28,808 nucleotides of DNA, from positions 1-28,808 of IMG/VR virus record IMGVR_UViG_3300032291_000398. One strand, written 5' to 3'. This DNA is from a virus (Duplodnaviria; Caudoviricetes). Below, piece by piece: positions 1 through 13,226 of the stretch. The notes under the pieces are model-generated. The model was not told the origin of the DNA and searched no databases. It was given only the letters and a program-made list of their open reading frames with translations. Position numbers and translations under genes: made by a program. Every line of letters starts with the position of its first letter. Position 1 is the first letter of the stretch.

Positions 1-52
1 TGGCTAAGTGAAAACATCACTTTGGCCTGTACTGCTTTACCTTGGAGAAAAT

Positions 53-265: not shown

Positions 266-1813
266 ATGCAGATCATAGACAACAAAGCCTTACTACTAAA
301 AGTACGTGAGCCACAACGAATTACAGAAGTTATACCTAAGAGTAAGGTGTTAGATGACGGAAGCGTACTCGTCAAATGGGGACTTGAAGAAGCTCAAGTG
401 CTAAAGAACTTACGTATAAAAAATGTACCGTCTCCTATCAATGCACAGTACAAATGGCCGGGGCTATATAGACCGTTTGACCATCAAAAAACAACTGCAT
501 CATTCTTGACGCTACACCGCAGAGCATTTTGTTTTAACGAACAAGGTACAGGCAAGACGGGTAGTGTTATCTGGGCGGCTGATTACTTGATGAGCTTGGG
601 GCAGATCAGACGGGTACTAGTCTTGTGTCCTTTATCTATTATGCAGTCAGCATGGCAGAATGATTTGTTTAGATTCGCAGTACATCGTACCGTAGCTATT
701 GCACATAGTTCTTCAAGAGAGAAGCGTATCAAAGCTATCCAGAGTGACGCTGAGTTCGTAATAATTAACTACGACGGGTTAGATATTGTTAAGGAAACTA
801 TTAACGAAGAAGACTTTGATCTGATAGTTATTGATGAAGCTAACGCATATAAAACTGTTTCTACGAAGCGTTGGAAAGTACTAAACAGTATTATTAAACC
901 TAGCACATGGGTATGGATGTTGACGGGTACTCCGGCTTCTCAATCACCGACAGATGCGTATGGTCTAGCACGTATTGTTAACCCTGCAGGTGTACCTAAA
1001 TTCTTTGGGTCGTTCAGAGATATGGTGATGCAGAAAGTAACTACGTTTAAATATGTACCCAAGCCGCAGTCTGAGACCATAGTGCATAACGTATTACAAC
1101 CTGCGATTAGATTCACTAAAGAGGAATGCTTAGACCTACCAGAGATTACTTATGTCACACGTCAGATACCGCTCACTCCACAGCAACAGAAATATTATGA
1201 GCATCTACGTAAACACATGGTGGCAGTAGCAGCAGGCGAAGAGATCACGACAGTTAACGCAGCAGCAAACTTGAATAAATTACTCCAGCTTTCATGTGGC
1301 GCGGTATACACGGATAGTGGAGAGACAGTTGCCTTTGATGCATCTAACCGCATGGAAGCACTGAAAGAAGTTATAGATGAGGCAAGCCATAAAGTTATTG
1401 TGTTCGTACCATATCGCCATAGCATTCAGATAATTAGCGAAGAGTTAAAGAAGTGTGGTTATGCAACAGCAGTCATTAGTGGCGAAGTATCAGCAGGTAA
1501 ACGCACGGAGATATTTGATAAGTTTCAGACGGAAGATAACCCTAGAGTATTAATAATCCAACCACAAGCAGCATCGCATGGAGTAACACTGACGGCAGCA
1601 AATGTAGTTGTGTATTGGTCGCCCGTTATGTCTGTAGAAACGTATCTACAATGTAATGCAAGACCGCATAGAGCAGGACAACGTAACCCAGTAACAATCA
1701 TCCACTTGCAAGGCTCTCCTGTAGAGAAACGTATGTATGCAATGTTAGAAGCTAAAGTGGATATTCATTCCCGTGTTCTAGAACTATATAAAAATTTGTT
1801 AGAAAGTGATTGA
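266..1813 (+). CDS. SNF2-family (SF2) DNA helicase/ATPase
   Basis: Walker A EQGTGKT, motif Ia LCPLS, motif II IDEA, motif III LTGTP, HELICc region SHGVTLTAA, and motif VI QCNARPHRAGQ. Confidence 0.93.
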   Translation: MQIIDNKALLLKVREPQRITEVIPKSKVLDDGSVLVKWGLEEAQVLKNLRIKNVPSPINAQYKWPGLYRPFDHQKTTASFLTLHRRAFCFNEQGTGKTGSVIWAADYLMSLGQIRRVLVLCPLSIMQSAWQNDLFRFAVHRTVAIAHSSSREKRIKAIQSDAEFVIINYDGLDIVKETINEEDFDLIVIDEANAYKTVSTKRWKVLNSIIKPSTWVWMLTGTPASQSPTDAYGLARIVNPAGVPKFFGSFRDMVMQKVTTFKYVPKPQSETIVHNVLQPAIRFTKEECLDLPEITYVTRQIPLTPQQQKYYEHLRKHMVAVAAGEEITTVNAAANLNKLLQLSCGAVYTDSGETVAFDASNRMEALKEVIDEASHKVIVFVPYRHSIQIISEELKKCGYATAVISGEVSAGKRTEIFDKFQTEDNPRVLIIQPQAASHGVTLTAANVVVYWSPVMSVETYLQCNARPHRAGQRNPVTIIHLQGSPVEKRMYAMLEAKVDIHSRVLELYKNLLESD

Positions 1814-1838
1814 CAGTGTAAAATATAGAAACTAGAAT
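1810..1838 (+). promoter_or_regulatory. Sigma70-type promoter
   Basis: TTGACA (1810-1815), 17-nt spacer, TAGAAT (1833-1838). It lies just upstream of the RBS and ATG at 1867, and the -35 box overlaps the helicase TGA. Confidence 0.85.
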
Positions 1839-1866
1839 TAGTTCTGTACTACCCTTGGAGAAAGAT

Positions 1867-2274
1867 ATGAAATACGTAAAGAACAAAGAAATACCAACAG
1901 ATAAGTTGGTAAAGACGTATATAAAAATACGTGATACACGCAGACAACTCACTGCTGATTTTGAAACTAAAGATCGTGAGTTAGAAGAACTCTTAGAAAC
2001 AATCGAGACCGAATTACTAGAAGCATGCAAGTCTGTAGGAGCTGATAGTATACGCACCCCGTTTGGAACAATTAGCCGTACTGTGAAGAAGCGGTACTGG
2101 ACTAGTGATTGGCATTCATTCTATGAGTTTGTAAAAGAACATGGAGCGTTAGAGTTATTTGAGAAGCGTGTTGCGCAGACCAATATGTCTACGTTCCTTG
2201 AAGAAAACCCTGACTTGCATCCCCCGGGGTTAAATGTTGACAGCCGTTATTCGGTTGTTGTCCGTCGTAAATAA
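1867..2274 (+). CDS. Conserved phage hypothetical protein of replication modules (N-terminal coiled coil)
   Basis: GGAG at 1857-1860 precedes ATG at 1867. Pattern LVKTYIKIRD...SIRTPFGT...DWHSFYEFV...PPGLNV. Function unknown. Confidence 0.8.
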   Translation: MKYVKNKEIPTDKLVKTYIKIRDTRRQLTADFETKDRELEELLETIETELLEACKSVGADSIRTPFGTISRTVKKRYWTSDWHSFYEFVKEHGALELFEKRVAQTNMSTFLEENPDLHPPGLNVDSRYSVVVRRK

Positions 2275-2284
2275 GGAGAAATAT

Positions 2285-3205
2285 ATGAGCGAACTTGCTC
2301 TCTTTAGTAAAGGTTTACCTGCGCACCTTAAAGCACTGGAACTCGATGACACAACCAAAGCTCTAATGGGTGGCGGTGGTGGCGATTCTAAACGTATCTC
2401 TATCGAAGGTGGCGTTTGGCGCATGATGGTCAATGGTAAAGAAGTTGCCCAGAATGAAGACCGTTCAATGAATGTAGTTATCGTTGCCGCTGCACCTAAA
2501 GTATCCCGTATGTTTTATGCAGGTACTTACAAGAAGGGTGTTGTATCTTCTCCTGATTGTTGGTCTGCTGATGGGGAACAACCTGATGCGAAAGCTAATA
2601 GCCCACAGTCTAAGAAGTGTGGAGACTGCCCACAAAACGTCAAAGGCTCAGGTCAAGGCGATACACGTGCATGCCGCTTCCAACAACGTTTGGCTGTAGT
2701 ATTAGAGAACGATGTTGCCGGTGATGTTTATCAATTGACATTGCCATCTACTTCAATCTTTGGTGCAGGCGAGAATGGCAAATGGCCTCTTCAAACTTAC
2801 GCTAAGATGGTTGCAAGCAAAGGCGTTCCTATTACGTCCGTTGTGACTGAAATGCGTTTTGATACAAGCAGCTCAACTCCTAAGTTAACTTTTAAGCCTG
2901 CGCGTTACTTAGAGACCGATGAGTTTAATTCAGCTCTTGAGCAAGGTAAATCACCTGCGGCTATCAAAGCAATCACTATGACTGTTGCGCAAGCTGATGG
3001 AGTTAAAGGTGCTGAAGGTAGAGACACTGAATCTGATGAGTTTGAGGAAGCTCCCGCATCAGCGAAGGCTAACAGTACTGCGGCGAAGAGCAAAGCTGCG
3101 GAAGCGGATTCAGACGAACCGGTTAAAAGAGTTAGCAAAAAAGAAGATGCGCCCGCTCCTAAGAAGGATGTAAGTAAAATCCTCGACGAGTGGGATGATG
3201 AGTAA
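2285..3205 (+). CDS. Putative ssDNA-binding/annealing protein
   Basis: AAGGAG RBS at 2273-2278 before ATG 2285. Beta-rich core with PDCWS...CGDCPQN...C residues and a low-complexity acidic tail ending LDEWDDE, as in phage SSBs. It sits between helicase and primase. Function is inferred. Confidence 0.65.
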   Translation: MSELALFSKGLPAHLKALELDDTTKALMGGGGGDSKRISIEGGVWRMMVNGKEVAQNEDRSMNVVIVAAAPKVSRMFYAGTYKKGVVSSPDCWSADGEQPDAKANSPQSKKCGDCPQNVKGSGQGDTRACRFQQRLAVVLENDVAGDVYQLTLPSTSIFGAGENGKWPLQTYAKMVASKGVPITSVVTEMRFDTSSSTPKLTFKPARYLETDEFNSALEQGKSPAAIKAITMTVAQADGVKGAEGRDTESDEFEEAPASAKANSTAAKSKAAEADSDEPVKRVSKKEDAPAPKKDVSKILDEWDDE

Positions 3206-3539: not shown

Positions 3540-6377
3540 ATGCTAACGAGGACAGACTTTCTTTCTTTAATTCTTCCCCCTACAGGTACATACTGTGTGG
3601 TTGGCTTGAAGAAAGATCAAAAACCAAAACAAATATTTGTTACCTCAGTCGAAGATATTGATAGTTATGCAGATGCGTTTGTCCATAAAGGATTCGATGC
3701 GTACTTTGCTCTAGCTTCTTTTGGAGATGACTCGGGACGTACAAATGCTAATGCGACACATTTAAATTCATTCTTCCTTGATTTGGATTGTGGCATCGGT
3801 AAGCCCTATGCTGATCAGGCTGAAGGTGTTACTGCGTTAAAAGAATTCATTAAGAAGACAGGCTTGCCTAAACCTACGGCTGTGGTTAATTCCGGTCGTG
3901 GTGTGCACTCATACTGGGTAGTTGAGCAGCCTGTTGAGAAGGACGAGTGGCGTGGTTTAGCTGAAGGATTAAAGGCACTATGTGTATCTCATGGGCTACA
4001 TGCTGACCCTGCTGTTACTGCTGACGTAGCGCGTATCCTGCGCATACCGGAGACTTTAAACTTTAAGAATCCTGATGATCCGCAGCCAGTTAAGCTGATT
4101 ATGGTTGGCTCACGGGTGGGTATTGAATCACTCAAAAACAAGTTTATAGCCGACGATTTCGTTATCCCGGGGACAAAACCTGTTCAGCGCACATTCGATC
4201 CAACCACACTGGCACTGCTAGGAAACTATCAGTCTCGGTTCAAAACTATCCTGATCAAGTCGGTTGAGGATGAAGGTTGCGCACAGCTTAAATACATCTA
4301 CGAGAACCAACCCATAGTCGAAGAGCCACTGTGGAGAGCCGGTCTGTCTATTGCACACCATTGCGTAGATGCTGATAAGGCTATTCATGTGATCTCTAAG
4401 AAGCACCCTGACTACGATGCACGTACCACTGAGAAGAAAGCTAATCAGACGAAAGGACCATATACCTGTGAGACATTTAAAAAGTTATCGCCAGAAGGTT
4501 GTGTGGGGTGTACGCAGCGGGTTAGCTCACCCATTCAGCTTGGTAGGGAAATCATCGAGCCGGATGATGAGCCGAAGGTTGTTGAAAGCCTCGAGCCGGT
4601 TACACAGGAAGTACGTACCTATGAGATTCCCAAATATCCGTTCCCATTCTTTAGGGGTAATGTCGGCGGGGTATATCGCAAGGGTGATCCGGATATCGCG
4701 GATGACAAAGATGAACTTATTTTCCCCTACGATTTTTATGTCACCAAAAGGCTCTACGATCCAGAAGATGGGGAGTGCATCATGCTCAGACTGCACTTGC
4801 CAAAAGATGGAGTAAGGGAGTTTATCGTACCTCTTAAAGATGTTATTTCAAAAGATAGGTTCATTAGTAGGCTTGCTGAGTACGGTATTGCTGCGTTGGG
4901 TAGAAAACAGGAGAAGATGATGATGTATACAACTAGATGGGTAGAAGAGCTACAAGCTATGGGTAAGGCAGAGATTGCACGTAAACAATTCGGATGGTTG
5001 TCGGATGACAGTGGTTTTATTATTGGTGACAGAGAGATTAGACCAGAGACTATTGAGTACAGTCCGCCATCAGCAACAACATTACCAGTAGTACCTGCAT
5101 TTGGTGCGCGTGGTGATTTCCAAGTATGGAAGGACACAATCAATCATTACCGTCATCCGGGGATGGAGCTACGTGCATTCGCACTGTTCATGGGCTTTGG
5201 TGGTCCACTTATGAAGTATGTTGCAGATGGTGCGCTTAGTGGGTTCTTACTTAACCTGATCAGTAGTGAGGGCGGTACGGGTAAATCTACGCTACTACAT
5301 GCTATCAATAGTATCTACGGCAACCCAGACGCATTGATGATGAGCTACAAGGATACGCACAACTTCCGCTTAAATAGATTCGGTGTGTATCAGAACCTCA
5401 CTGCAACCATCGACGAGTTAACTAATATGAAGCCGGAGGCTATGTCTGATCTGGTCTACGATATTACGTCAGGTAAAGGTAAGGGTCGCTTGTCTTCTAA
5501 AGCAAACGTAGAGCGTGTGAACAATACTTCATGGAAACTCCCAGTTGTATCTACGTCTAACAAGCTGATCAAAGATGCACTGCTTTCCATCAAGTCTTTC
5601 CCTGAGCCGGAACTACTGCGTATACTGGAGGGCTACTTGTCTATAGATAACTCTATGGATGCTATTCAATCTAAGCGCCACTTTGGTAGACTGCAGCACA
5701 ACTACGGACACGCCATAACACCGTTCATCCAACACGTGATGACTAACTTACCTCAGACCATTGAGTTTATTAACAAGATCAATGAGAAGGTAGACATTGC
5801 AGCAGGCATTACAAACAACGAACGCTTCTGGTCAGCAGGTCTGGCTATGGATTTAGCAGGTGGCATCATTGCAGGTCGATTAGGTTTGCACGATATTCCT
5901 ACTAAGCCTGTGTTTGATATGGCTGTAGAGATGGTTAAGAGCGCACGTAAGAACAACAAGGAGTCTATGTTTGATAGCCAAGATTTCTTAGGTGCTTTCT
6001 TACAGCGCCACTTCCATGAGATTCTGGTTATTAATGGTAAGGCGGATACACGCACAGGTATTGAACTCGGTCCGATTCGTGAGCCACGTGGGCAGTTGTC
6101 AGTGCGCTATGAGCCAGATACTAAGATGATGTATGTAGCCAACCGTGCATATCGTGAGGAGTGCAGCAAGTACCAGATGGGTTTCGATGCGTCTCTTGAG
6201 CCGTATGTAAAAAGCAAAGCGTTCTTGGGAGTTAAGAAGAAGCGTATGTTTGCAGGTACTGTAGCAAGCACTTCTCAGAACGTACAGGCATTGGTGTTCG
6301 ATGCTAGCCGACTAGGATTCTTTGATGAGGAGATACTGCTAAATGCTCCGCCTGCTGAACCTAGCGATTTTGATTGA
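3540..6377 (+). CDS. Primase-helicase fusion: AEP/RepB-type primase, Cys-containing middle domain, DUF927-type P-loop helicase
   Basis: AEP motifs FFLDLD, NSGRGVHSYW and RILRIPET. DUF927-like region with QFGW. Walker A EGGTGKST and Walker B TIDE, followed by GKGKGRL. Confidence 0.88.
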   Translation: MLTRTDFLSLILPPTGTYCVVGLKKDQKPKQIFVTSVEDIDSYADAFVHKGFDAYFALASFGDDSGRTNANATHLNSFFLDLDCGIGKPYADQAEGVTALKEFIKKTGLPKPTAVVNSGRGVHSYWVVEQPVEKDEWRGLAEGLKALCVSHGLHADPAVTADVARILRIPETLNFKNPDDPQPVKLIMVGSRVGIESLKNKFIADDFVIPGTKPVQRTFDPTTLALLGNYQSRFKTILIKSVEDEGCAQLKYIYENQPIVEEPLWRAGLSIAHHCVDADKAIHVISKKHPDYDARTTEKKANQTKGPYTCETFKKLSPEGCVGCTQRVSSPIQLGREIIEPDDEPKVVESLEPVTQEVRTYEIPKYPFPFFRGNVGGVYRKGDPDIADDKDELIFPYDFYVTKRLYDPEDGECIMLRLHLPKDGVREFIVPLKDVISKDRFISRLAEYGIAALGRKQEKMMMYTTRWVEELQAMGKAEIARKQFGWLSDDSGFIIGDREIRPETIEYSPPSATTLPVVPAFGARGDFQVWKDTINHYRHPGMELRAFALFMGFGGPLMKYVADGALSGFLLNLISSEGGTGKSTLLHAINSIYGNPDALMMSYKDTHNFRLNRFGVYQNLTATIDELTNMKPEAMSDLVYDITSGKGKGRLSSKANVERVNNTSWKLPVVSTSNKLIKDALLSIKSFPEPELLRILEGYLSIDNSMDAIQSKRHFGRLQHNYGHAITPFIQHVMTNLPQTIEFINKINEKVDIAAGITNNERFWSAGLAMDLAGGIIAGRLGLHDIPTKPVFDMAVEMVKSARKNNKESMFDSQDFLGAFLQRHFHEILVINGKADTRTGIELGPIREPRGQLSVRYEPDTKMMYVANRAYREECSKYQMGFDASLEPYVKSKAFLGVKKKRMFAGTVASTSQNVQALVFDASRLGFFDEEILLNAPPAEPSDFD

Positions 6378-6543
6378 TTGGGCAAACTTTAAGCCAGAGG
6401 CCTCATTCTTCATACCATGCCTAAATAGAAAGGAAGTGGCGGACTATGTGAAGGGTGAGGCAACTAGGCTGCGGATGCAGGTTGTCTGTAAACAAGTTAT
6501 CGAAAAAGGAAGATATGGCTTGCGCGTTTGGAGATTGGCATGA
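6343..6543 (+). CDS. Small basic hypothetical phage protein (SFFIPC...GLRVWR)
   Basis: GAGGAG at 6327-6332 upstream of ATG 6343. It overlaps the primase end and is the last gene of the + arm. Confidence 0.65.
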   Translation: MLRLLNLAILIDWANFKPEASFFIPCLNRKEVADYVKGEATRLRMQVVCKQVIEKGRYGLRVWRLA

Positions 6544-6549
6544 TATGCT
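6520..6549 (+). promoter_or_regulatory. Candidate extended -10 promoter with no downstream ORF
   Basis: TTGCGC (6520-6525), 18-nt spacer ending in TGA, then TATGCT (6544-6549), giving TGnTATGCT. Confidence 0.5.
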
Positions 6550-6555
6550 TCGCGT

Positions 6556-6616
6556 ACTCTACGTTTCTCCAAGGAAAAAAGAGCTTCGTCCCCGCCTCAG
6601 TTGCGGGGATTTTTTT
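6556..6616 (+). ncRNA. Candidate anti-Shine-Dalgarno small RNA (~60 nt)
   Basis: Bounded by a promoter-like site and an intrinsic terminator. Contains TTTCTCCAAGG (6564-6574), the exact reverse complement of CCTTGGAGAAA at 40-50 and 1853-1863. The 5' end is inferred. Confidence 0.55.
6589..6616 (+). terminator. Rho-independent terminator at the convergence of the two arms
   Basis: TCCCCGC-ctcagtt-GCGGGGA 7-bp stem followed by T7. Confidence 0.9.
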
Positions 6617-9600
6617 ATAGCCCAGACATTTCCCTTAGCTTCGGTATGTTGTACGCCAGCAACAGTGCTTTCTCTTGTTCCTGAATCTCTTTTATCTTCT
6701 CTTGTTTTTCACTACCCGATAGCTCTGGGTCAGCCGAGATTATGTTGCGGTACTTGCGTAGATTACTTAACTGCTGCTCTACCTTAGTAGCCACACCCCT
6801 CATAGCGTACAGTTTGAGGTTATCTTCGTTTAAGTACTCATGCAGTTCTTCCACACGGCCTTCACGCTTAAACAAGTTAACTGTATCCACTACCTTATCA
6901 ACAGACTCACGGAATCTATAGAACTCTGACTTGTAGCCACGCCCTGATGGGTCATACATAAACGTACTTATCTGCGGTATTTTATTAATCGGCTTAGAAG
7001 CTCTATTAGGATCGGCAACCGCATCAGTTACGTCTAAAGCAATTGCGCCAATCATACCTGTATACCCACGAATAAGATGGTCTACTTTCATTGGGGAGAC
7101 ACCTACCATACCAAACAACTTGGCAATCTCTGATGTGCCTGAAGTAAACTGCAATGATGGGTCTACGTTCCTCATGGCTTGTCCAACAATAGGATTACCT
7201 GTAAAGAACGAATAGTTCACCATAACTTCAAGCGCAGGTTTAACAGCTTGAGGCATTGCATTCGGTGTGCTGTATGCAGTAATAAAGGCATCACGGAAAC
7301 CACGGAAGAAGTCAGATGCATCTTGTGGGCGCTCAGTACCTTGGCTAACTACGTAATTAATTATACGTTCTGGAATAACCTTGAACATAAACCCAAGCTC
7401 AGGAGCAACAGGCACTTTCAAACCTGTGCCGGGGATGATGTAGTTCTTATCACGCTCGTATTCTTCCAGACCTTTGTAGTCATCGTCATCACCAACCAAC
7501 AATGTATACAACATATTGAGTGCGGCTAATTTGAGACCAGTTCCAAAGAAGAGCATTTGCGCTTGGCGCTTCTCAGCTAATGACACGCCTTTACCTTGCA
7601 TGGTGCGTGTTAAAACATCCATACCTTGGATATACGCATTCATAAAAGGAATCATGTGGCGCATGGTGCGCACGGTAGGATTAGCACCGGCACGTTTAAA
7701 GTTGATGTACTCTTTAGCGCGATATAAAGCTAGGCGTTGGTCACCATCAGGCATTGCGGCTGATTTAGTTTCTGCGATGGTTTGCTCATAGATAGCGGCA
7801 CGAACAGCCAAGTCCGCAGCGGTAGAGAACTGCTCTAACCTATCCCATACCTTTTTAATTTTGCCACGTTCAGCGATACCATATCTTTCACGGGCGCGTC
7901 TAGATACTTGGTCAGGCATACCATCGTACACACCTGTAATACCCAGCGACTGCAAATCAGTTAGTTCGCCACGTAATGCTCTACCAAAGTTTTTAAATAC
8001 TTTAGGCGGTATAGAGAAAGGGTTATTCACACCTGACAACAACATGCCACGATATGTACCGTCCTGCACTAACTGAGACAAAGCAAACGCAGGCATGTGG
8101 GTAATAGCACCACGCAACATATCACCCATGTATTTAAACGAGCTTACAATCGGACCGAGTACCTCTACGTTATTAGAGAAAGCTGACATGTCCAACGGAC
8201 TACCTAGCAAGTAAGCAGTGCGCTCACCGTCTTTATAAGCAAAGATTACTCGGTTCTTGTTGTTCTTTAACTCACGTTTTAATTCATCGTCTGTCTTAAT
8301 CTCTTTAGCATCAGGCAATTGAGTAGCCAGTGCACTAGCTGCACGAGTTTTTAAACCTGTCTTAATAGCCCAGTTAGTCAGACCAATCATGTTATCAAAC
8401 ACGTTAGCGATTTCTTTAGAGCTACCTTCACGGTCTAGCTTAGGCAACTGGGACAGATTAATCAAACCAGTCTTATACATTGCCGGTGCATCATCAAAGG
8501 TATTAACTTCTTCTTCGATACGAGTCCAAGGCACGTAACCTGCATTCTCTTTCCAGTTCTTAGCAGTCTCAGCGTTGATGCGCCCTGTTTGCTGTAGGAA
8601 ATCTACTAAACCATTCTTATAGGCAGTAAACTCTTTAAGTATAGATTTAATTTCTGGGTAGGCTTCCATAGCTTCTAGACCAGCAGCAATCTCTTCAGCC
8701 GATGCACGGATGGTAATTTTTTTCTTCTCTAATGCAGTTGCTGCCTTAATATTCTTTTTAGCTAGAGCCGCGTCTACTTCTTTCTGTACCTCAGCATTGT
8801 GGGCATTAATTTCATTGGCACGATTAGCGATGAGCGCATTGTGCGCAACCTGCACGGCTAACGATACAGAACCTAGCTTATCCCCTAGCTTATGCAACTT
8901 ATCAAAGACACCCTTCATAGTTGGAGCGCCTTCTTTTTTACTAGTCTGCGCTAGTCCGTATTTATTAATCTCGATATTGCCAAGTTCCATGTAGCTTTCA
9001 GCAAGACCAGTAGCATCTTGAGCTTGGTCTACCAACAAGTCAGCACGAACATCGCCCATAGCATTAATTAGGGCGTTATCAAACTCAGCTTGTACCTTTT
9101 CATTTACTGTAGCGTCACTATCCACAAACGCACGACGGAAGCGCGTATAGAGTCCGGGGCCTTCTTTGCGAGTAAAGAAATGGTGTACACCTGCCAAACC
9201 TTTACCAATAACTTCGGCACCATCTTCACGTGGGTTAGAGATACCCTTCATACGTTCATTTAATGCGGCAGCTTTCTTACCCTCAGGCGTTAGGTTCTCT
9301 TCGGTATTTTTTAACTGATAAGAAATCCTACTGTCATTACGGTCGTAGCTACCTGTATTAAATATAGATTTAATCTGCCCCGGATCGTACACAGCTAAAT
9401 TCTTACGTCCGCCTTCTCGCATATAGAAGCCATCAAACCCAGCGGCTTTAATTGCGCTTTGAGTGCGGAAAGATTCAATTTGTTTCCAATTACCTTGTTT
9501 AATAAACGCTATATCGGAAGCATCTAAAGTACCTGTTGCCTGTAGCGTTTTTACATGCTCAGGGTTATCAAAATCAAACGGGTTCTGTGCACTGACGTAG

Positions 9601-12600
9601 ACTGGAATTATATTTGCACGAGACGGCAACGACTCTTTAACCAATGCCCTAAATTCATCTTCAGCACTAGTGCCCTCTCGTTTTGCAATTTTGTTTGCTT
9701 TAGTTTGGAGCGTTATTTTTTCTTCTGGACTAAGGGTATTTATAGCTTCTTTAACCATGTAGTCTTCGGATGAAGACGTATAGCTATCAGCGAACCTAGG
9801 ATCATCAGTTACAAATATAGCACCAGCTTGCTTAGGCTTGAACGAATGAATATCCTGAGCAGTGCCGTGGTACATAATTTTAGGTGTACCATTAGCGTTA
9901 CGTATTACAGAGTTACCAAACCATTTTTTAAAGTTAGCTGATACAGTATCCAGTACCTCCTTCAGCATAGGTTTAGCTTCACCCGTATCCTGCTGCACAT
10001 CTGATATAGGCTGTGCGCCTTCATGTACAGCCTCTAAGTACTCTTTAAATGTTTCATTTGGTAGGTAGCGATTGTTCTTTAAGTTACCAAAGAATGTACG
10101 CAACGCACGGGCTAGACGAGCAAAGAATTGCTCAACCACACCAATTGGTTTTTCGCTTGTTGTAGCCCAGCGGGATACTTGATCTGCATACCATTCATCA
10201 AAACTACGCCAGTAATCTTTAAGATCAGCTGCCATTCTCCCTTCAACAACCCCCGTTCTTTTCGCTGTAGTTTTTGCGCGTAATGCATCTACAAGCTGCC
10301 GTCCTGTCTCACCATGACGGTCTACTAACCACGCATTAAACTCGGTTGTAATTGTTGCCTTTACTGCAGGGCTAGCATTTTGGTATACCTCACGTTCGTG
10401 GATATGACCTATCTCATGCGCCAACGTCTCCAACATAGCAGTTTTGCTAGTGGATTTAGTAAACGATATATAGTATTCGCCTGTTGGTAAACGACGCATC
10501 GAACCAAGCTCATTAGGGTCAAGACCTACAGAACCAATAGCTCTATAAGGACCAGTAAACTTATCTTTGTCCGCACGAGCATCTTCTACGGTAGTTATAT
10601 ATACGTTAGCTTTAATACCCAATAACTTCAACCAACCTTTTGCAATACCTACAAGCTCTTTAGGGGTGCTACCTGATGCAGATACTTGCCCTTGTGTAAA
10701 TGTAGGGAATGGTTTGGACTTATGTTTAGTAGCGTCCTTTGCTTCTAGTTGATCAACTATTTTAGTAAGTTTAGTTTTTTCTTGTGGGGTAATTACATTA
10801 CCTGTGTAGGAACTAACTTGTACGTAACTATGCCAAGCGCCTTTAGCAACTATATGCACAGGTTTTCCAGAGATCACAGAAAACGCACGAATTAATGCAA
10901 GGTCGCCTTCTTGCCAAGCTACAGTACCGCCAAATTCTTTAGCGACTAATTCAGCCTTTGCACGTTGCTCAGGCGTATACTTTTCTTTCTTTGGTGCCTT
11001 GGGGGCTTTAGGAGTTACAGGAGTTACAGGAGCTACAGGAGCTACAGGAGCTATAGAGGTTTTACCCAAGAAGTTAGCAATGTCTGCAGTATCTACATGA
11101 TCATTAATATCCGCTGCGCTATTTACATAAGTAGTAGCTTCACTGCGTTTATAACCATTAGCCATTAACTCGGCGATGGCATCCTTAGCAGTTATCTTTC
11201 CTTCAGGCGGTGGTATTTCTTCAGCTAGTGCAGTTGGCTGTGCGCCTTCTCCAACATCAATTTGTTCAGTAGGTGCTGGAGCAACATCCAATCGTCCGCC
11301 GACAGTTTCTTCAATTCCCGTGGCGGGTGCTTCTTGTCGTTCACCAACCATTGGAGTGCTTTGCTCAGTTGCTCCGGCGTTAGGCTCAATACTTCCGGTG
11401 ACATTTGTAGCCTCCTTCTTAGCACGTGGTTTTCTAGGTTTTCTAAGGTCTAACTCCCCTTGCTCCATAAAGGTAGGAGACTCTAAAAATTTCTGTATAC
11501 CCTCAACCATTTTGGTACTACGGTTAGGGTTATTTGCAAAGTCAGTTAATACTTCTCTTACTTCCGCACGTTGTACAGGATCAGCCAAATCTTTATCTAA
11601 AAGGGCTTCACGTAATTTTTTATTAGTACGTCCAATACCCATTGCTTGGAAATCTGCTTCCGTAACAGGACGAGTTTCTTCTTCAATAGCGACAGCAGGT
11701 GCTTCTAACTGAGGCTGAGGGATATTAGAGGGTTGTAATTGGAAGAACCCACTAGGTTGTGTTTGGTCTGGTAGTAGTAACTCTTGCTGCCCGCCTGCTT
11801 GAGGCTCACCTGTAAATATTTCTGGAGTAGGTTGTGCAGCAAGTGCGTTTGCTTGGTCACGTGCATCCATTTGTAAGAACTGCATCTCGGCAGGAGTAAC
11901 CATCTCACCTGTTGATATACGATTCTGAATGTCGTTTACACGCTCTTGCCTAAACATCTCTACTTGGTCAGGACTCAATGCGCCAGTAGTTTCTTCTTCC
12001 TCACCTAATGCAACACCTTCGCCAGTCTTTTGACGTGGCATCTCTGGCATACCAAAGTCCAGACCCATTTGACCAGCAGCATCTTCTGTACGCTCCGCGC
12101 CTTCCGTCTGCTTAGATATACTTTTAATTTGCTTTTCTAAGTCAGCACGTGCGTCATTGAGCCTATCTGCTTGCTCGAGAATAGCTTGTTTTTGTTCTGG
12201 TGTAGTAGCAGGGGCTTCGTATTGGGATTTAAGTCTATCTACCTCACGCATCAACACGTCGTGCTGCTCACGCATCTGGGTAATAGCTAATAGATTAGCT
12301 CGACGTTGTCCTTCTGTCTCTTCTGCAGCACGATACGGCTCAGGGGGGAGTTTCCCAAACCCAGACATGCCATCATCAAACAACTCACCTTGCGTAGCGG
12401 TAGTGGGAAGTCCGGCAGGGGTAGTGGTAGGTGGGGCAGTAGTAGTTGTGGTACGTGCGCGACGACCTAGAGTAGCGTCTAATAAAAAGCTAGTTAATGC
12501 ACCAGCACCTGCACCGTACGCACCTTCTTCAGCTGCATCGGCAAGAATAGGTTGGTCAGGTTTATATATACCTTTAGCTATAAGGTTTTGAGATACTTTT

Positions 12601-13226
12601 TGTGCGGCTTCAGTAGCACCTTCCACACCGCCACGTAGGAACGCTGTGTAAACTATATTTTTAGCGAACTTAATTTGTGGGGCGACAGTATCTAGTAAGC
12701 CGGGGCCAATACCCAAAGCCGTAGCCAACGCACGATCATCACCTTTTACACCTGCCTCTTCAGCGCGTTCACGTGCTTCACCAGCACCTGCTGCCGTACC
12801 AATACCTGCACTAGCTACTCGACCTGCTACGCCTAAAGGACCAAGTGCAAAGAAAGGTATTGTTGAACCAACAGCTTCACCTAGTTTACGAGATACAGTA
12901 TCTTCGTACCCCAACTCAGGGGCAAACGCTTTTCTTACACCTTCTGCTTTTTTACCTACATACCCACGTACACTTTGCTCCATCTCTTCAGGTAAGAGGG
13001 CAGACGCACCTGTAACAGCAGCTTCGCCTAAGCCAACGGCACCGGGGATTAAACCTTTAAAAAATTCTTTAGTCTGCCCACCAATAGTTGGACCTTCAAC
13101 TAACCTTTTAAATTGCTTAGGAGATAGCCCCTCGATTGCTAAGTACCCATCAATATCTTGAGCAGGCGCATTCTGGCTCACCATGCTCCGTACATTAGCA
13201 ATTATCTGTTCATAGCGAGTTGCCAT
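6615..13226 (-). CDS. Large polyvalent internal virion/ejection protein (2203 aa) with zincin-like metallopeptidase, ADP-ribosyltransferase (ART-PolyVal-like) and C-terminal LPD38-like domains
   Basis: Gly/Ala-rich N-terminus. LAHEIGH (HEIGH at 10404-10418) with downstream DEWYAD. FKKWFGNS...PKIMYHGT...IFVT...IIPVYV...NPFD...GFDG...QIKS (about 9320-9935). C-terminal IPFMNAYIQG...VPVAPELG...NYSFFTGNPIV. Last and largest gene of the virion arm. Confidence 0.82.
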   Translation of the reverse strand: MATRYEQIIANVRSMVSQNAPAQDIDGYLAIEGLSPKQFKRLVEGPTIGGQTKEFFKGLIPGAVGLGEAAVTGASALLPEEMEQSVRGYVGKKAEGVRKAFAPELGYEDTVSRKLGEAVGSTIPFFALGPLGVAGRVASAGIGTAAGAGEARERAEEAGVKGDDRALATALGIGPGLLDTVAPQIKFAKNIVYTAFLRGGVEGATEAAQKVSQNLIAKGIYKPDQPILADAAEEGAYGAGAGALTSFLLDATLGRRARTTTTTAPPTTTPAGLPTTATQGELFDDGMSGFGKLPPEPYRAAEETEGQRRANLLAITQMREQHDVLMREVDRLKSQYEAPATTPEQKQAILEQADRLNDARADLEKQIKSISKQTEGAERTEDAAGQMGLDFGMPEMPRQKTGEGVALGEEEETTGALSPDQVEMFRQERVNDIQNRISTGEMVTPAEMQFLQMDARDQANALAAQPTPEIFTGEPQAGGQQELLLPDQTQPSGFFQLQPSNIPQPQLEAPAVAIEEETRPVTEADFQAMGIGRTNKKLREALLDKDLADPVQRAEVREVLTDFANNPNRSTKMVEGIQKFLESPTFMEQGELDLRKPRKPRAKKEATNVTGSIEPNAGATEQSTPMVGERQEAPATGIEETVGGRLDVAPAPTEQIDVGEGAQPTALAEEIPPPEGKITAKDAIAELMANGYKRSEATTYVNSAADINDHVDTADIANFLGKTSIAPVAPVAPVTPVTPKAPKAPKKEKYTPEQRAKAELVAKEFGGTVAWQEGDLALIRAFSVISGKPVHIVAKGAWHSYVQVSSYTGNVITPQEKTKLTKIVDQLEAKDATKHKSKPFPTFTQGQVSASGSTPKELVGIAKGWLKLLGIKANVYITTVEDARADKDKFTGPYRAIGSVGLDPNELGSMRRLPTGEYYISFTKSTSKTAMLETLAHEIGHIHEREVYQNASPAVKATITTEFNAWLVDRHGETGRQLVDALRAKTTAKRTGVVEGRMAADLKDYWRSFDEWYADQVSRWATTSEKPIGVVEQFFARLARALRTFFGNLKNNRYLPNETFKEYLEAVHEGAQPISDVQQDTGEAKPMLKEVLDTVSANFKKWFGNSVIRNANGTPKIMYHGTAQDIHSFKPKQAGAIFVTDDPRFADSYTSSSEDYMVKEAINTLSPEEKITLQTKANKIAKREGTSAEDEFRALVKESLPSRANIIPVYVSAQNPFDFDNPEHVKTLQATGTLDASDIAFIKQGNWKQIESFRTQSAIKAAGFDGFYMREGGRKNLAVYDPGQIKSIFNTGSYDRNDSRISYQLKNTEENLTPEGKKAAALNERMKGISNPREDGAEVIGKGLAGVHHFFTRKEGPGLYTRFRRAFVDSDATVNEKVQAEFDNALINAMGDVRADLLVDQAQDATGLAESYMELGNIEINKYGLAQTSKKEGAPTMKGVFDKLHKLGDKLGSVSLAVQVAHNALIANRANEINAHNAEVQKEVDAALAKKNIKAATALEKKKITIRASAEEIAAGLEAMEAYPEIKSILKEFTAYKNGLVDFLQQTGRINAETAKNWKENAGYVPWTRIEEEVNTFDDAPAMYKTGLINLSQLPKLDREGSSKEIANVFDNMIGLTNWAIKTGLKTRAASALATQLPDAKEIKTDDELKRELKNNKNRVIFAYKDGERTAYLLGSPLDMSAFSNNVEVLGPIVSSFKYMGDMLRGAITHMPAFALSQLVQDGTYRGMLLSGVNNPFSIPPKVFKNFGRALRGELTDLQSLGITGVYDGMPDQVSRRARERYGIAERGKIKKVWDRLEQFSTAADLAVRAAIYEQTIAETKSAAMPDGDQRLALYRAKEYINFKRAGANPTVRTMRHMIPFMNAYIQGMDVLTRTMQGKGVSLAEKRQAQMLFFGTGLKLAALNMLYTLLVGDDDDYKGLEEYERDKNYIIPGTGLKVPVAPELGFMFKVIPERIINYVVSQGTERPQDASDFFRGFRDAFITAYSTPNAMPQAVKPALEVMVNYSFFTGNPIVGQAMRNVDPSLQFTSGTSEIAKLFGMVGVSPMKVDHLIRGYTGMIGAIALDVTDAVADPNRASKPINKIPQISTFMYDPSGRGYKSEFYRFRESVDKVVDTVNLFKREGRVEELHEYLNEDNLKLYAMRGVATKVEQQLSNLRKYRNIISADPELSGSEKQEKIKEIQEQEKALLLAYNIPKLREMSGL
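11011..11055. repeat. 5 x 9-bp tandem repeat (GGAGYTAYA) encoding an APV/TPV linker
   Basis: ggagttaca ggagttaca ggagctaca ggagctaca ggagctata, translating on the - strand to IAPVAPVAPVTPVTP. Confidence 0.9.

Follow-up and report, generated by a model that had tools for sequence, protein, structure and literature searches.

The window, by which we mean the whole stretch of 28,808 nucleotides that was analysed, is an entire 28.8-kb virus record with two converging arms. The + arm carries, in order, a 70-aa ORF, an SNF2 helicase, a 135-aa gene (gpA), a 306-aa gene (gpB), an HTH gene, a DUF927 primase-like gene and a gene for a 66-aa protein, and the − arm carries virion and lysis genes, ending in a large virion protein of 2203 aa with an LPD38 and an ADP-ribosyltransferase (ART-PolyVal) domain. 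Between the arms lies a predicted small-RNA unit, which closes the operon that gpA opens (Table 1). The phage family is large and uncultured, with about 1,700 stretches estimated in IMG/VR, and relatives near completion measure 59–68 kb. The nearest cultured phages are only remotely related (primase identity ≤28% in near-full-length matches), and the 66-aa gene has no match in any cultured phage. Among the cultured relatives, Pseudomonas phage Rollin shows no gap at the convergence, and Rhizobium phage RHph_TM3_14A has a terminator there with no evident promoter or seed. Two MAG contigs were considered as host pointers; they come from unrelated phyla and were not accepted as hosts.

Table 1. 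Position and strand of the features discussed, in window coordinates
Feature	Position	Strand	Remark
Second predicted target, helicase leader	40..50	+	net about −8.8 kcal/mol
gpA promoter, near-consensus sigma70 TTGACA-17-TAGAAT	1810..1838	+	
Main predicted target, extended SD CCTTGGAGAAA of gpA (ATG 1867)	1853..1863	+	
gpA, 135-aa gene, DUF7307 / Gam-Gp157-like lead	1867..2274	+	PF22709 match below cutoff
Weak 7-nt match at SD of the 306-aa gpB gene	2275..2281	+	net about −4 kcal/mol
66-aa gene, conserved, ends GLRVWR, last of early arm, hosts the −35	6343..6543	+	
Small-RNA promoter, predicted sigma70-type: −35 TTGCGC, extended −10 TGnTATGCT	6520..6549	+	
Predicted small RNA, ~62 nt, 5′ end inferred from −10 position	6555..6616	+	
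Anti-RBS seed UUUCUCCAAGG in weak hairpin	6564..6574	+	
Intrinsic terminator, GC hairpin and U-run, end overlapping late gene's stop codon	6588..6616	+	
Convergent late gene, 2203 aa, LPD38 and ART-PolyVal	6615..13226	−	profile matches

The 66-aa ORF is a real gene; its protein has no Pfam or PHROG match, and a DUF7303 lead is weak. A role of this protein as an RNA chaperone was considered and set aside, as the structural model was good but gave no significant fold match. The product of gpB (2285–3205) has four invariant cysteines and an acidic tail, and is possibly a zinc-binding ssDNA-binding protein; in the fold comparison no match reached E≤0.001, and the gp32/RPA rows were weak and non-significant. 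The 70-aa ORF (53–265) sits between the helicase leader and the helicase, abutting the helicase start. It is missing at that place in the 97%-identical relative L001, and in L001 and other close relatives a leader of the 40–50 type directly precedes the helicase. Just 5′ of the helicase RBS, a hairpin with an AAAA-containing loop was seen in the window (2–27) and in L001, L036, L038, L040, L050 and L056; its stem sequence changes with the pairing kept, and it is a possible processing, stabilising or protein-binding element. A promoter similar to the gpA promoter was found in 27 of 37 representatives. The −35 of the gpA and ATPase promoters often lies within a palindrome, TTGACA-N-TGTCAA or a near form (window 1810–1822; gpA and ATPase promoters of G003, G005, G007, G009, G018, G022 and G024), a candidate operator to which the HTH protein encoded in the operon may bind.

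A conserved promoter-to-terminator unit

The original prediction read the gap between the arms as a small-RNA gene, and its letters were confirmed. TTGCGC (6520–6525) is followed, after an 18-nt spacer, by a −10 (TATGCT, 6544–6549) that is extended by TG at 6541–6542; the gap (6544–6614) measures 71 nt; and the terminator consists of a stem at 6588–6610 and a T-run. The −35 overlaps the Leu-Arg codons of the 66-aa gene (motif GLRVW), and the −10 is located at its stop codon. The unit had also been described as free of ORFs, which holds in part: a 26-codon frame does cross it at 6540–6620, but the frame is not conserved. L001 has a frameshift in it, L038 reaches a stop 2 codons in, and others have a GTG or a divergent sequence; the frame was rejected.

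Of 370 related loci with an upstream 66-aa gene, 343 have a unit of promoter, body and terminator where the early and late arms converge. The loci come from a discovery set of 193 sequences (153 with the 66-aa gene, of which 143 yielded units, 12 by a relaxed rule) and a later set of 217 loci with the gene (200 units, 3 truncated loci and 14 failed). The 225 distinct units have a median length of 71 nt and a C+U content of 64%. A −35 of the form TT[GA]CG occurs in 198 of them and a −10 of the form TANNNT in 188, the latter count being somewhat inflated because the best of three spacings was chosen. An anti-SD core is present in 218 of the 225, and the late-gene stop falls −8 to +10 nt from the end of the T-run in 187 of 207 units. 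No A-run that would serve the − strand precedes the terminator hairpin: the preceding 8 nt contain no more than 3 A in 208 of the 225 units. Contigs of two sequencing runs comprise close DNA variants, with no seed change among those listed. In L098, L099 and L100, the automatic promoter call is probably wrong, and a better −10 lies downstream.

The codons that host the −35 are biased. Among 37 representatives, the Leu of GLRVW is encoded by TTR in 32 of the 33 in which it is Leu-coded, compared with a background of 40%, and the Arg by CGN in all 37, compared with 74%. This synonymous-codon bias points to a constraint at the DNA level, as a promoter would impose. The unit is a candidate sRNA gene, conserved and so far uncatalogued.

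A weak hairpin had been proposed to expose the seed in its loop. The seed is indeed partly exposed, but the minimum-energy fold has a loop of 3 nt and the mean unpaired probability of the seed in this genome is 0.36, with an opening cost of 4.2 kcal/mol. Across 37 representatives, seeds are more often unpaired than the rest of the RNA (0.68 vs 0.51). Consensus folding of 18 close units gave no pairs and no common stem. At least two anti-SD cores are present in 163 of the 225 units, and the multiple seeds apparently address different tags. Two or more seeds in separate hairpins were seen in the units of L004, L005, L026, L090, L095 and L104, and in L054 and L057 the unit has a bulge that splits the contiguous tag.

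Covariation of seed and RBS, and the early-arm tags

The complementarity on which the original prediction was built was found again: the 11-mer occurs in exactly three copies, at 40–50 (+), 1853–1863 (+) and 6564–6574 (−). With one mismatch allowed there are 4 matches, compared with 0.48 expected, and none of 100 shuffles reached 4. Net pairing at the gpA site is predicted at about −12.9 kcal/mol after opening costs. The GGAGAAA match at 2275–2281 is present as claimed, but weak. A site within the helicase CDS (1711–1737) reaches −13.7 kcal/mol, on par with the best RBS, and pairing energy alone thus does not pick out RBSs.

Seed and RBS-flanking bases covary in relatives, a check that had been named in the original prediction, and they do so in the discovery set, in a held-out set and in deep independent pairs. 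The discovery test used one random representative per clade (gpA identity <70%, n=23) in 10 draws, with permutation p values. At the gpA start of these 23 clades, the longest complement was 7.9 nt for the cognate unit and 5.6 nt for foreign units (p≤0.0005), and the duplex energy was 17.1 and 11.8 kcal/mol, respectively (p≤0.0005). Smaller effects were obtained for gpB (energy p 0.0005) and the helicase (p about 0.001), and at the <70% cut-off the HTH gene, the primase, the 66-aa gene and three late genes were not significant. The held-out set comprised 158 new loci with gpA, of which 81, forming 25 clades, were <70% identical to every discovery gpA. Here the gpA start again matched its cognate unit better (8.5 vs 6.6 nt, p≤0.0005; energy 18.1 vs 15.2), gpB was not significant and the helicase was borderline, and a slight signal came unexpectedly from the primase, a control (5.3 vs 4.65 nt, p 0.003 by length). 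Of the targets, gpA alone covaries strongly in both sets.

Independent pairs were drawn as branch-disjoint pairs on a primase tree of 53 representatives, and only the deepest (0.68) of the three identity cut-offs tried gives a clear result. At this depth (≤68% alike), 13 pairs favour the cognate unit and 1 is against (median p 0.0009); at 75% the count is 13 to 4 (median p 0.03); and at 90%, where seeds have rarely changed, it is 12 to 8 and not significant (median p 0.25). Matched single-base changes are visible in unit and tag, as in TTTGCTCC/GGAGCAAA, CTGCTCC/GGAGCAG, TTCGCTCC/GGAGCGAA and GTTAGTTCCTTT/AAAGGAACTAAC. When 70 of 75 representatives were anchored on the GGA core, columns +4 to +7 past the core were Watson-Crick in 62–72% of cognate and 37–42% of foreign pairs; each of these spacer columns uses all four pair types, and across the family hardly any excess is seen in columns 5′ of the core. 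In these anchored pairs, G:U showed no excess over A:C mismatches (38/64 in cognate and 3703/5740 in foreign pairs), and the 8-mer analysis of early starts gave a trend only, so that RNA–RNA pairing is not proven by sequence alone. The gpA-leader match of L098, L099 and L100 (CTCATTTTGGT / ACCAAAATGAG) lies 5′ of the SD core. As a single anecdote, the helicase leader tag of L038 and L048 reads CCTTGGGGAA, which would pair by G:U with an unchanged seed.

The matches extend beyond gpA to other genes of the early arm. In 20 contigs of 45–68 kb, a complement of at least 8 nt to the own unit was found at 96 of 698 early-arm and 14 of 890 late-arm starts, and one of at least 9 nt at 68 early-arm and 7 late-arm starts. 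Per genome, the own unit matches 4.8 early starts compared with 1.6 for foreign units (p=5e-4), and 0.7 late starts compared with 0.9. These counts use gene starts from a simple caller, include two repeated genes of G005 twice, draw 5 of the 20 genomes from the window's clade, and miss bulged seeds because only exact matches are taken. The own unit equals or beats all foreign units in 8 of the 20 genomes, 5 of which belong to the window's clade, and the regulon is strong in only about half of the genomes. When the commonest 8-mer at early starts was picked blind to the RNA, the own unit contained its complement in 6.9 of 20 genomes, compared with 0.46 expected.

The tags are conserved and asymmetric, stand in one orientation at early-gene RBSs and have clade-specific sequences. 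At gene starts they are restricted to the early arm: among 132 copies of hand-picked tags in 16 genomes, 67 are at early starts in sense orientation (0.4% of positions) and 2 at late starts; the unit holds 13 in inverted form, 47 fall within genes and 3 lie elsewhere, and there is just 1 inverted intergenic copy outside the unit. In the window's clade, the first genes behind two consensus early sigma70 promoters (ATPase and gpA) are usually both tagged, and tagged starts also occur 10–23 kb upstream, behind other promoters. The original prediction had named the targets as replication genes; they are early genes, and for the most part not the core replication enzymes. In G007, the tag marks an AAA ATPase, a DUF3150 gene, the helicase, gpA and unknown genes, and is not at the starts of DNA polymerase A, the PD-(D/E)XK nuclease (exonuclease) or the primase. 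On the late arm, a gene of ~318 aa located two genes before the capsid gene in G003, G005 and G007 matches its own unit over 7–10 nt (GGAGAAG.. / GGAGAAAGC), as does the capsid gene in G001, G007 and G022.

Known systems and competing explanations

No Rfam family reaches its gathering score for the unit in the window and 7 related loci. The C4 family is absent from the unit's 10 matches up to E 10, and has no gathering-level match in the 7 related loci. The closest parallel in action is the c4 RNA of P1/P7, which pairs around a phage-mRNA RBS through a loop-exposed sequence and blocks translation, giving phage-specific heteroimmunity (PMC12197685). The likeness lies in a phage RNA pairing at a phage RBS; c4 targets the ant antirepressor mRNA of a temperate phage, whereas here one seed would address many early genes. 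The RNA predicted here is also shorter, no integrase was recognised among the G007 genes scanned (most of its genes), and no antirepressor is among the matched genes annotated in G007. In Vibrio cholerae, OppZ and CarZ are RNase E products from operon 3′ ends that pair with their own transcript to inhibit translation (PMC7398697). The RNA studied here is likewise predicted to come from an operon 3′ end and to pair with its own transcript; unlike OppZ and CarZ, which act on their own operon, it has a dedicated, conserved promoter, and some of its predicted targets belong to other operons. In T4, RegB inactivates early phage mRNAs as a group through a GGA-centred 11-nt site (PMC1702504). The predicted outcome, group inactivation of early mRNAs, resembles the one given there, but RegB is a protein nuclease of fixed specificity, whereas here an RNA seed that differs between clades would specify the targets. 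The unit works like c4, OppZ/CarZ and, in outcome, RegB, and is a member of none of them.

Start-associated sequences (SAS) provide a further comparison. These are over-conserved asymmetric RBS tags in one orientation at non-structural genes of Cluster K mycobacteriophages and Cluster EF Microbacterium phages (PMC3203893, PMC7302621). K1 phages carry a single inverted SAS away from gene starts, and the 2011 paper left open whether the ligand is RNA or protein (PMC3203893). The tag described here is likewise asymmetric, in one orientation and at early-gene RBSs, with an inverted copy. It differs in sequence and phage group (the 13-bp Cluster K consensus is not matched), and its inverted copy is in a promoter-terminator unit and covaries with the tag. 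The inverted SAS of phage Anaya (L269:44871-44883, about 59,870–59,882 of the record) lies in a 385-nt non-coding gap (44683–45067) behind a terminator-like hairpin. A TAGACT hexamer stands ~100 nt upstream of it, and our scan showed no terminator on its downstream side. It is a candidate anti-SAS RNA on these grounds, and is to be taken as a lead rather than a test. No inverted SAS was found in the 46 of 61 kb of Pixie and 48 of 53 kb of TM4 that were examined. A literature search, which covered few subscription journals, returned no account of this element, nor of any phage sRNA directed at the early regulon of its own phage. Four unit motifs are absent from 6 supplement files of the Fremin 2023 survey of structured RNAs in IMG/VR, and the unit may be among the candidates in its remaining 3 files.

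Comparative support for pairing with the phage's own early RBSs is strong, and the covariation of seed and RBS makes a trans-acting anti-SD RNA the best reading, as the original prediction had it, its restriction to replication genes being too narrow. Among the alternatives, the unit could be the 3′ UTR of the gpA operon, pairing with, or cut out to act on, its own first RBS, the other matches being secondary. A separate promoter precedes gpA in 27 of 37 representatives, gpA is the sole strongly covarying target in both sets, and OppZ and CarZ supply a precedent (PMC7398697). We nonetheless consider cis feedback alone unlikely, since the dedicated promoter, conserved against codon freedom, argues for primary transcription, and tagged starts lie 10–23 kb upstream behind other promoters. 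An RNA that pairs with the tag could also protect or store the mRNAs, e.g. by shielding GGAG from an endonuclease. The duplex would reach from the SD across the spacer as far as the start codon, which speaks against protection, as a duplex over SD and spacer blocks 30S binding. The covariation itself is silent on the sign of regulation. T4 RegB does cleave early phage mRNA GGA-specifically (PMC1702504). We give protection a very small chance.

Other readings would do without pairing to the phage's own leaders. A protein could read the tag on the mRNA, with the copy in the gap acting as a decoy on a read-through 3′ end of the late (−) transcript. This would suit the absent G:U excess and a hairpin whose lack of an A-run (≤3 A in 208 of 225 units) may let late RNA run through the unit; however, the promoter and the terminator are both oriented towards +, tag sequences vary freely from clade to clade with the unit changing to match, and the bulge-split tag of L054 and L057 suits a duplex better than a protein site, which together make a decoy very unlikely, if marginally less so than protection. 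That the 11-mer is a double-stranded DNA operator is hardly credible: an identical repeated motif and an HTH gene in the operon are what such a reading would lead one to expect, but the motif is asymmetric, is located at internal operon starts and is distributed by strand (67 copies in sense at early starts, 2 late, 13 inverted in the unit and 1 other inverted intergenic), and a better candidate for an operator is the separate palindrome that overlaps the gpA −35. Equally far-fetched is a generic anti-SD RNA directed against mRNAs of the host, comparable to the toxic sRNAs of Betaproteobacteria, with incidental phage matches. The unit does share size and a C/U-rich hairpin with terminator with RF02278 and anti-hemB RF02837, which are chromosomal host RNAs whereas the unit is phage-borne, and 218 of 225 units have an anti-SD core. 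These resemblances (20.9 bits, E 0.074 and 18.9 bits, E 0.053) are far under the gathering scores of 50 and 49.5, and the seed follows the early starts of its own phage, sites that an RNA directed at the host ought to avoid. Extra targets among host mRNAs may exist besides the phage leaders.

A predicted early-gene switch and its meaning

The unit probably makes a trans-acting sRNA that represses the phage's own early regulon. As the seed is complementary to, and covaries with, the RBSs of the phage's own early genes, this gene set is likely switched off by base-pairing. Host RNA polymerase would transcribe the unit, possibly supplemented by RNA processed from the 3′ end of the gpA operon, and the RNA would build up with time and genome copy number. 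On gpA, the helicase leader and a number of early genes further upstream, it would then form a duplex that covers the SD together with the spacer leading to the start codon, and would block 30S entry at these tagged genes; late mRNAs, which lack the tag, would escape silencing. That the sign of regulation is repression we infer from the position of the sites. Since the unit closes the operon that gpA opens, the arrangement would form a delayed negative feedback together with a group shut-off of early genes. The late stop overlaps the U-run, and the hairpin has no upstream A-run, so that late read-through could give a perfect antisense copy of the RNA; such a cis-antisense copy could be a built-in off switch. 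Exclusion of kin phages by RNA is possible because the barcodes differ between clades.

A wider proposal, which we hold as tentative and rather doubtful, is that a clade-private RBS barcode read by one sRNA would serve the timing of early shut-off, copy counting, the silencing of kin and heteroimmunity by barcode change, that the same logic explains SAS, and that this is a general, unrecognised phage strategy. The phage sRNAs in the available part of one review act on a single phage gene or on host genes. If true, one RNA that reaches a whole set of its phage's early genes by way of a covarying RBS tag would be an RNA counterpart of T4 RegB. The small-RNA model also provides a concrete hypothesis for the SAS question of 2011, testable in cultured phages, and the clade units with their tags would be natural orthogonal sRNA/RBS pairs. 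For this abundant phage family, the unit would, if the reading is true, be a new timing or immunity device.
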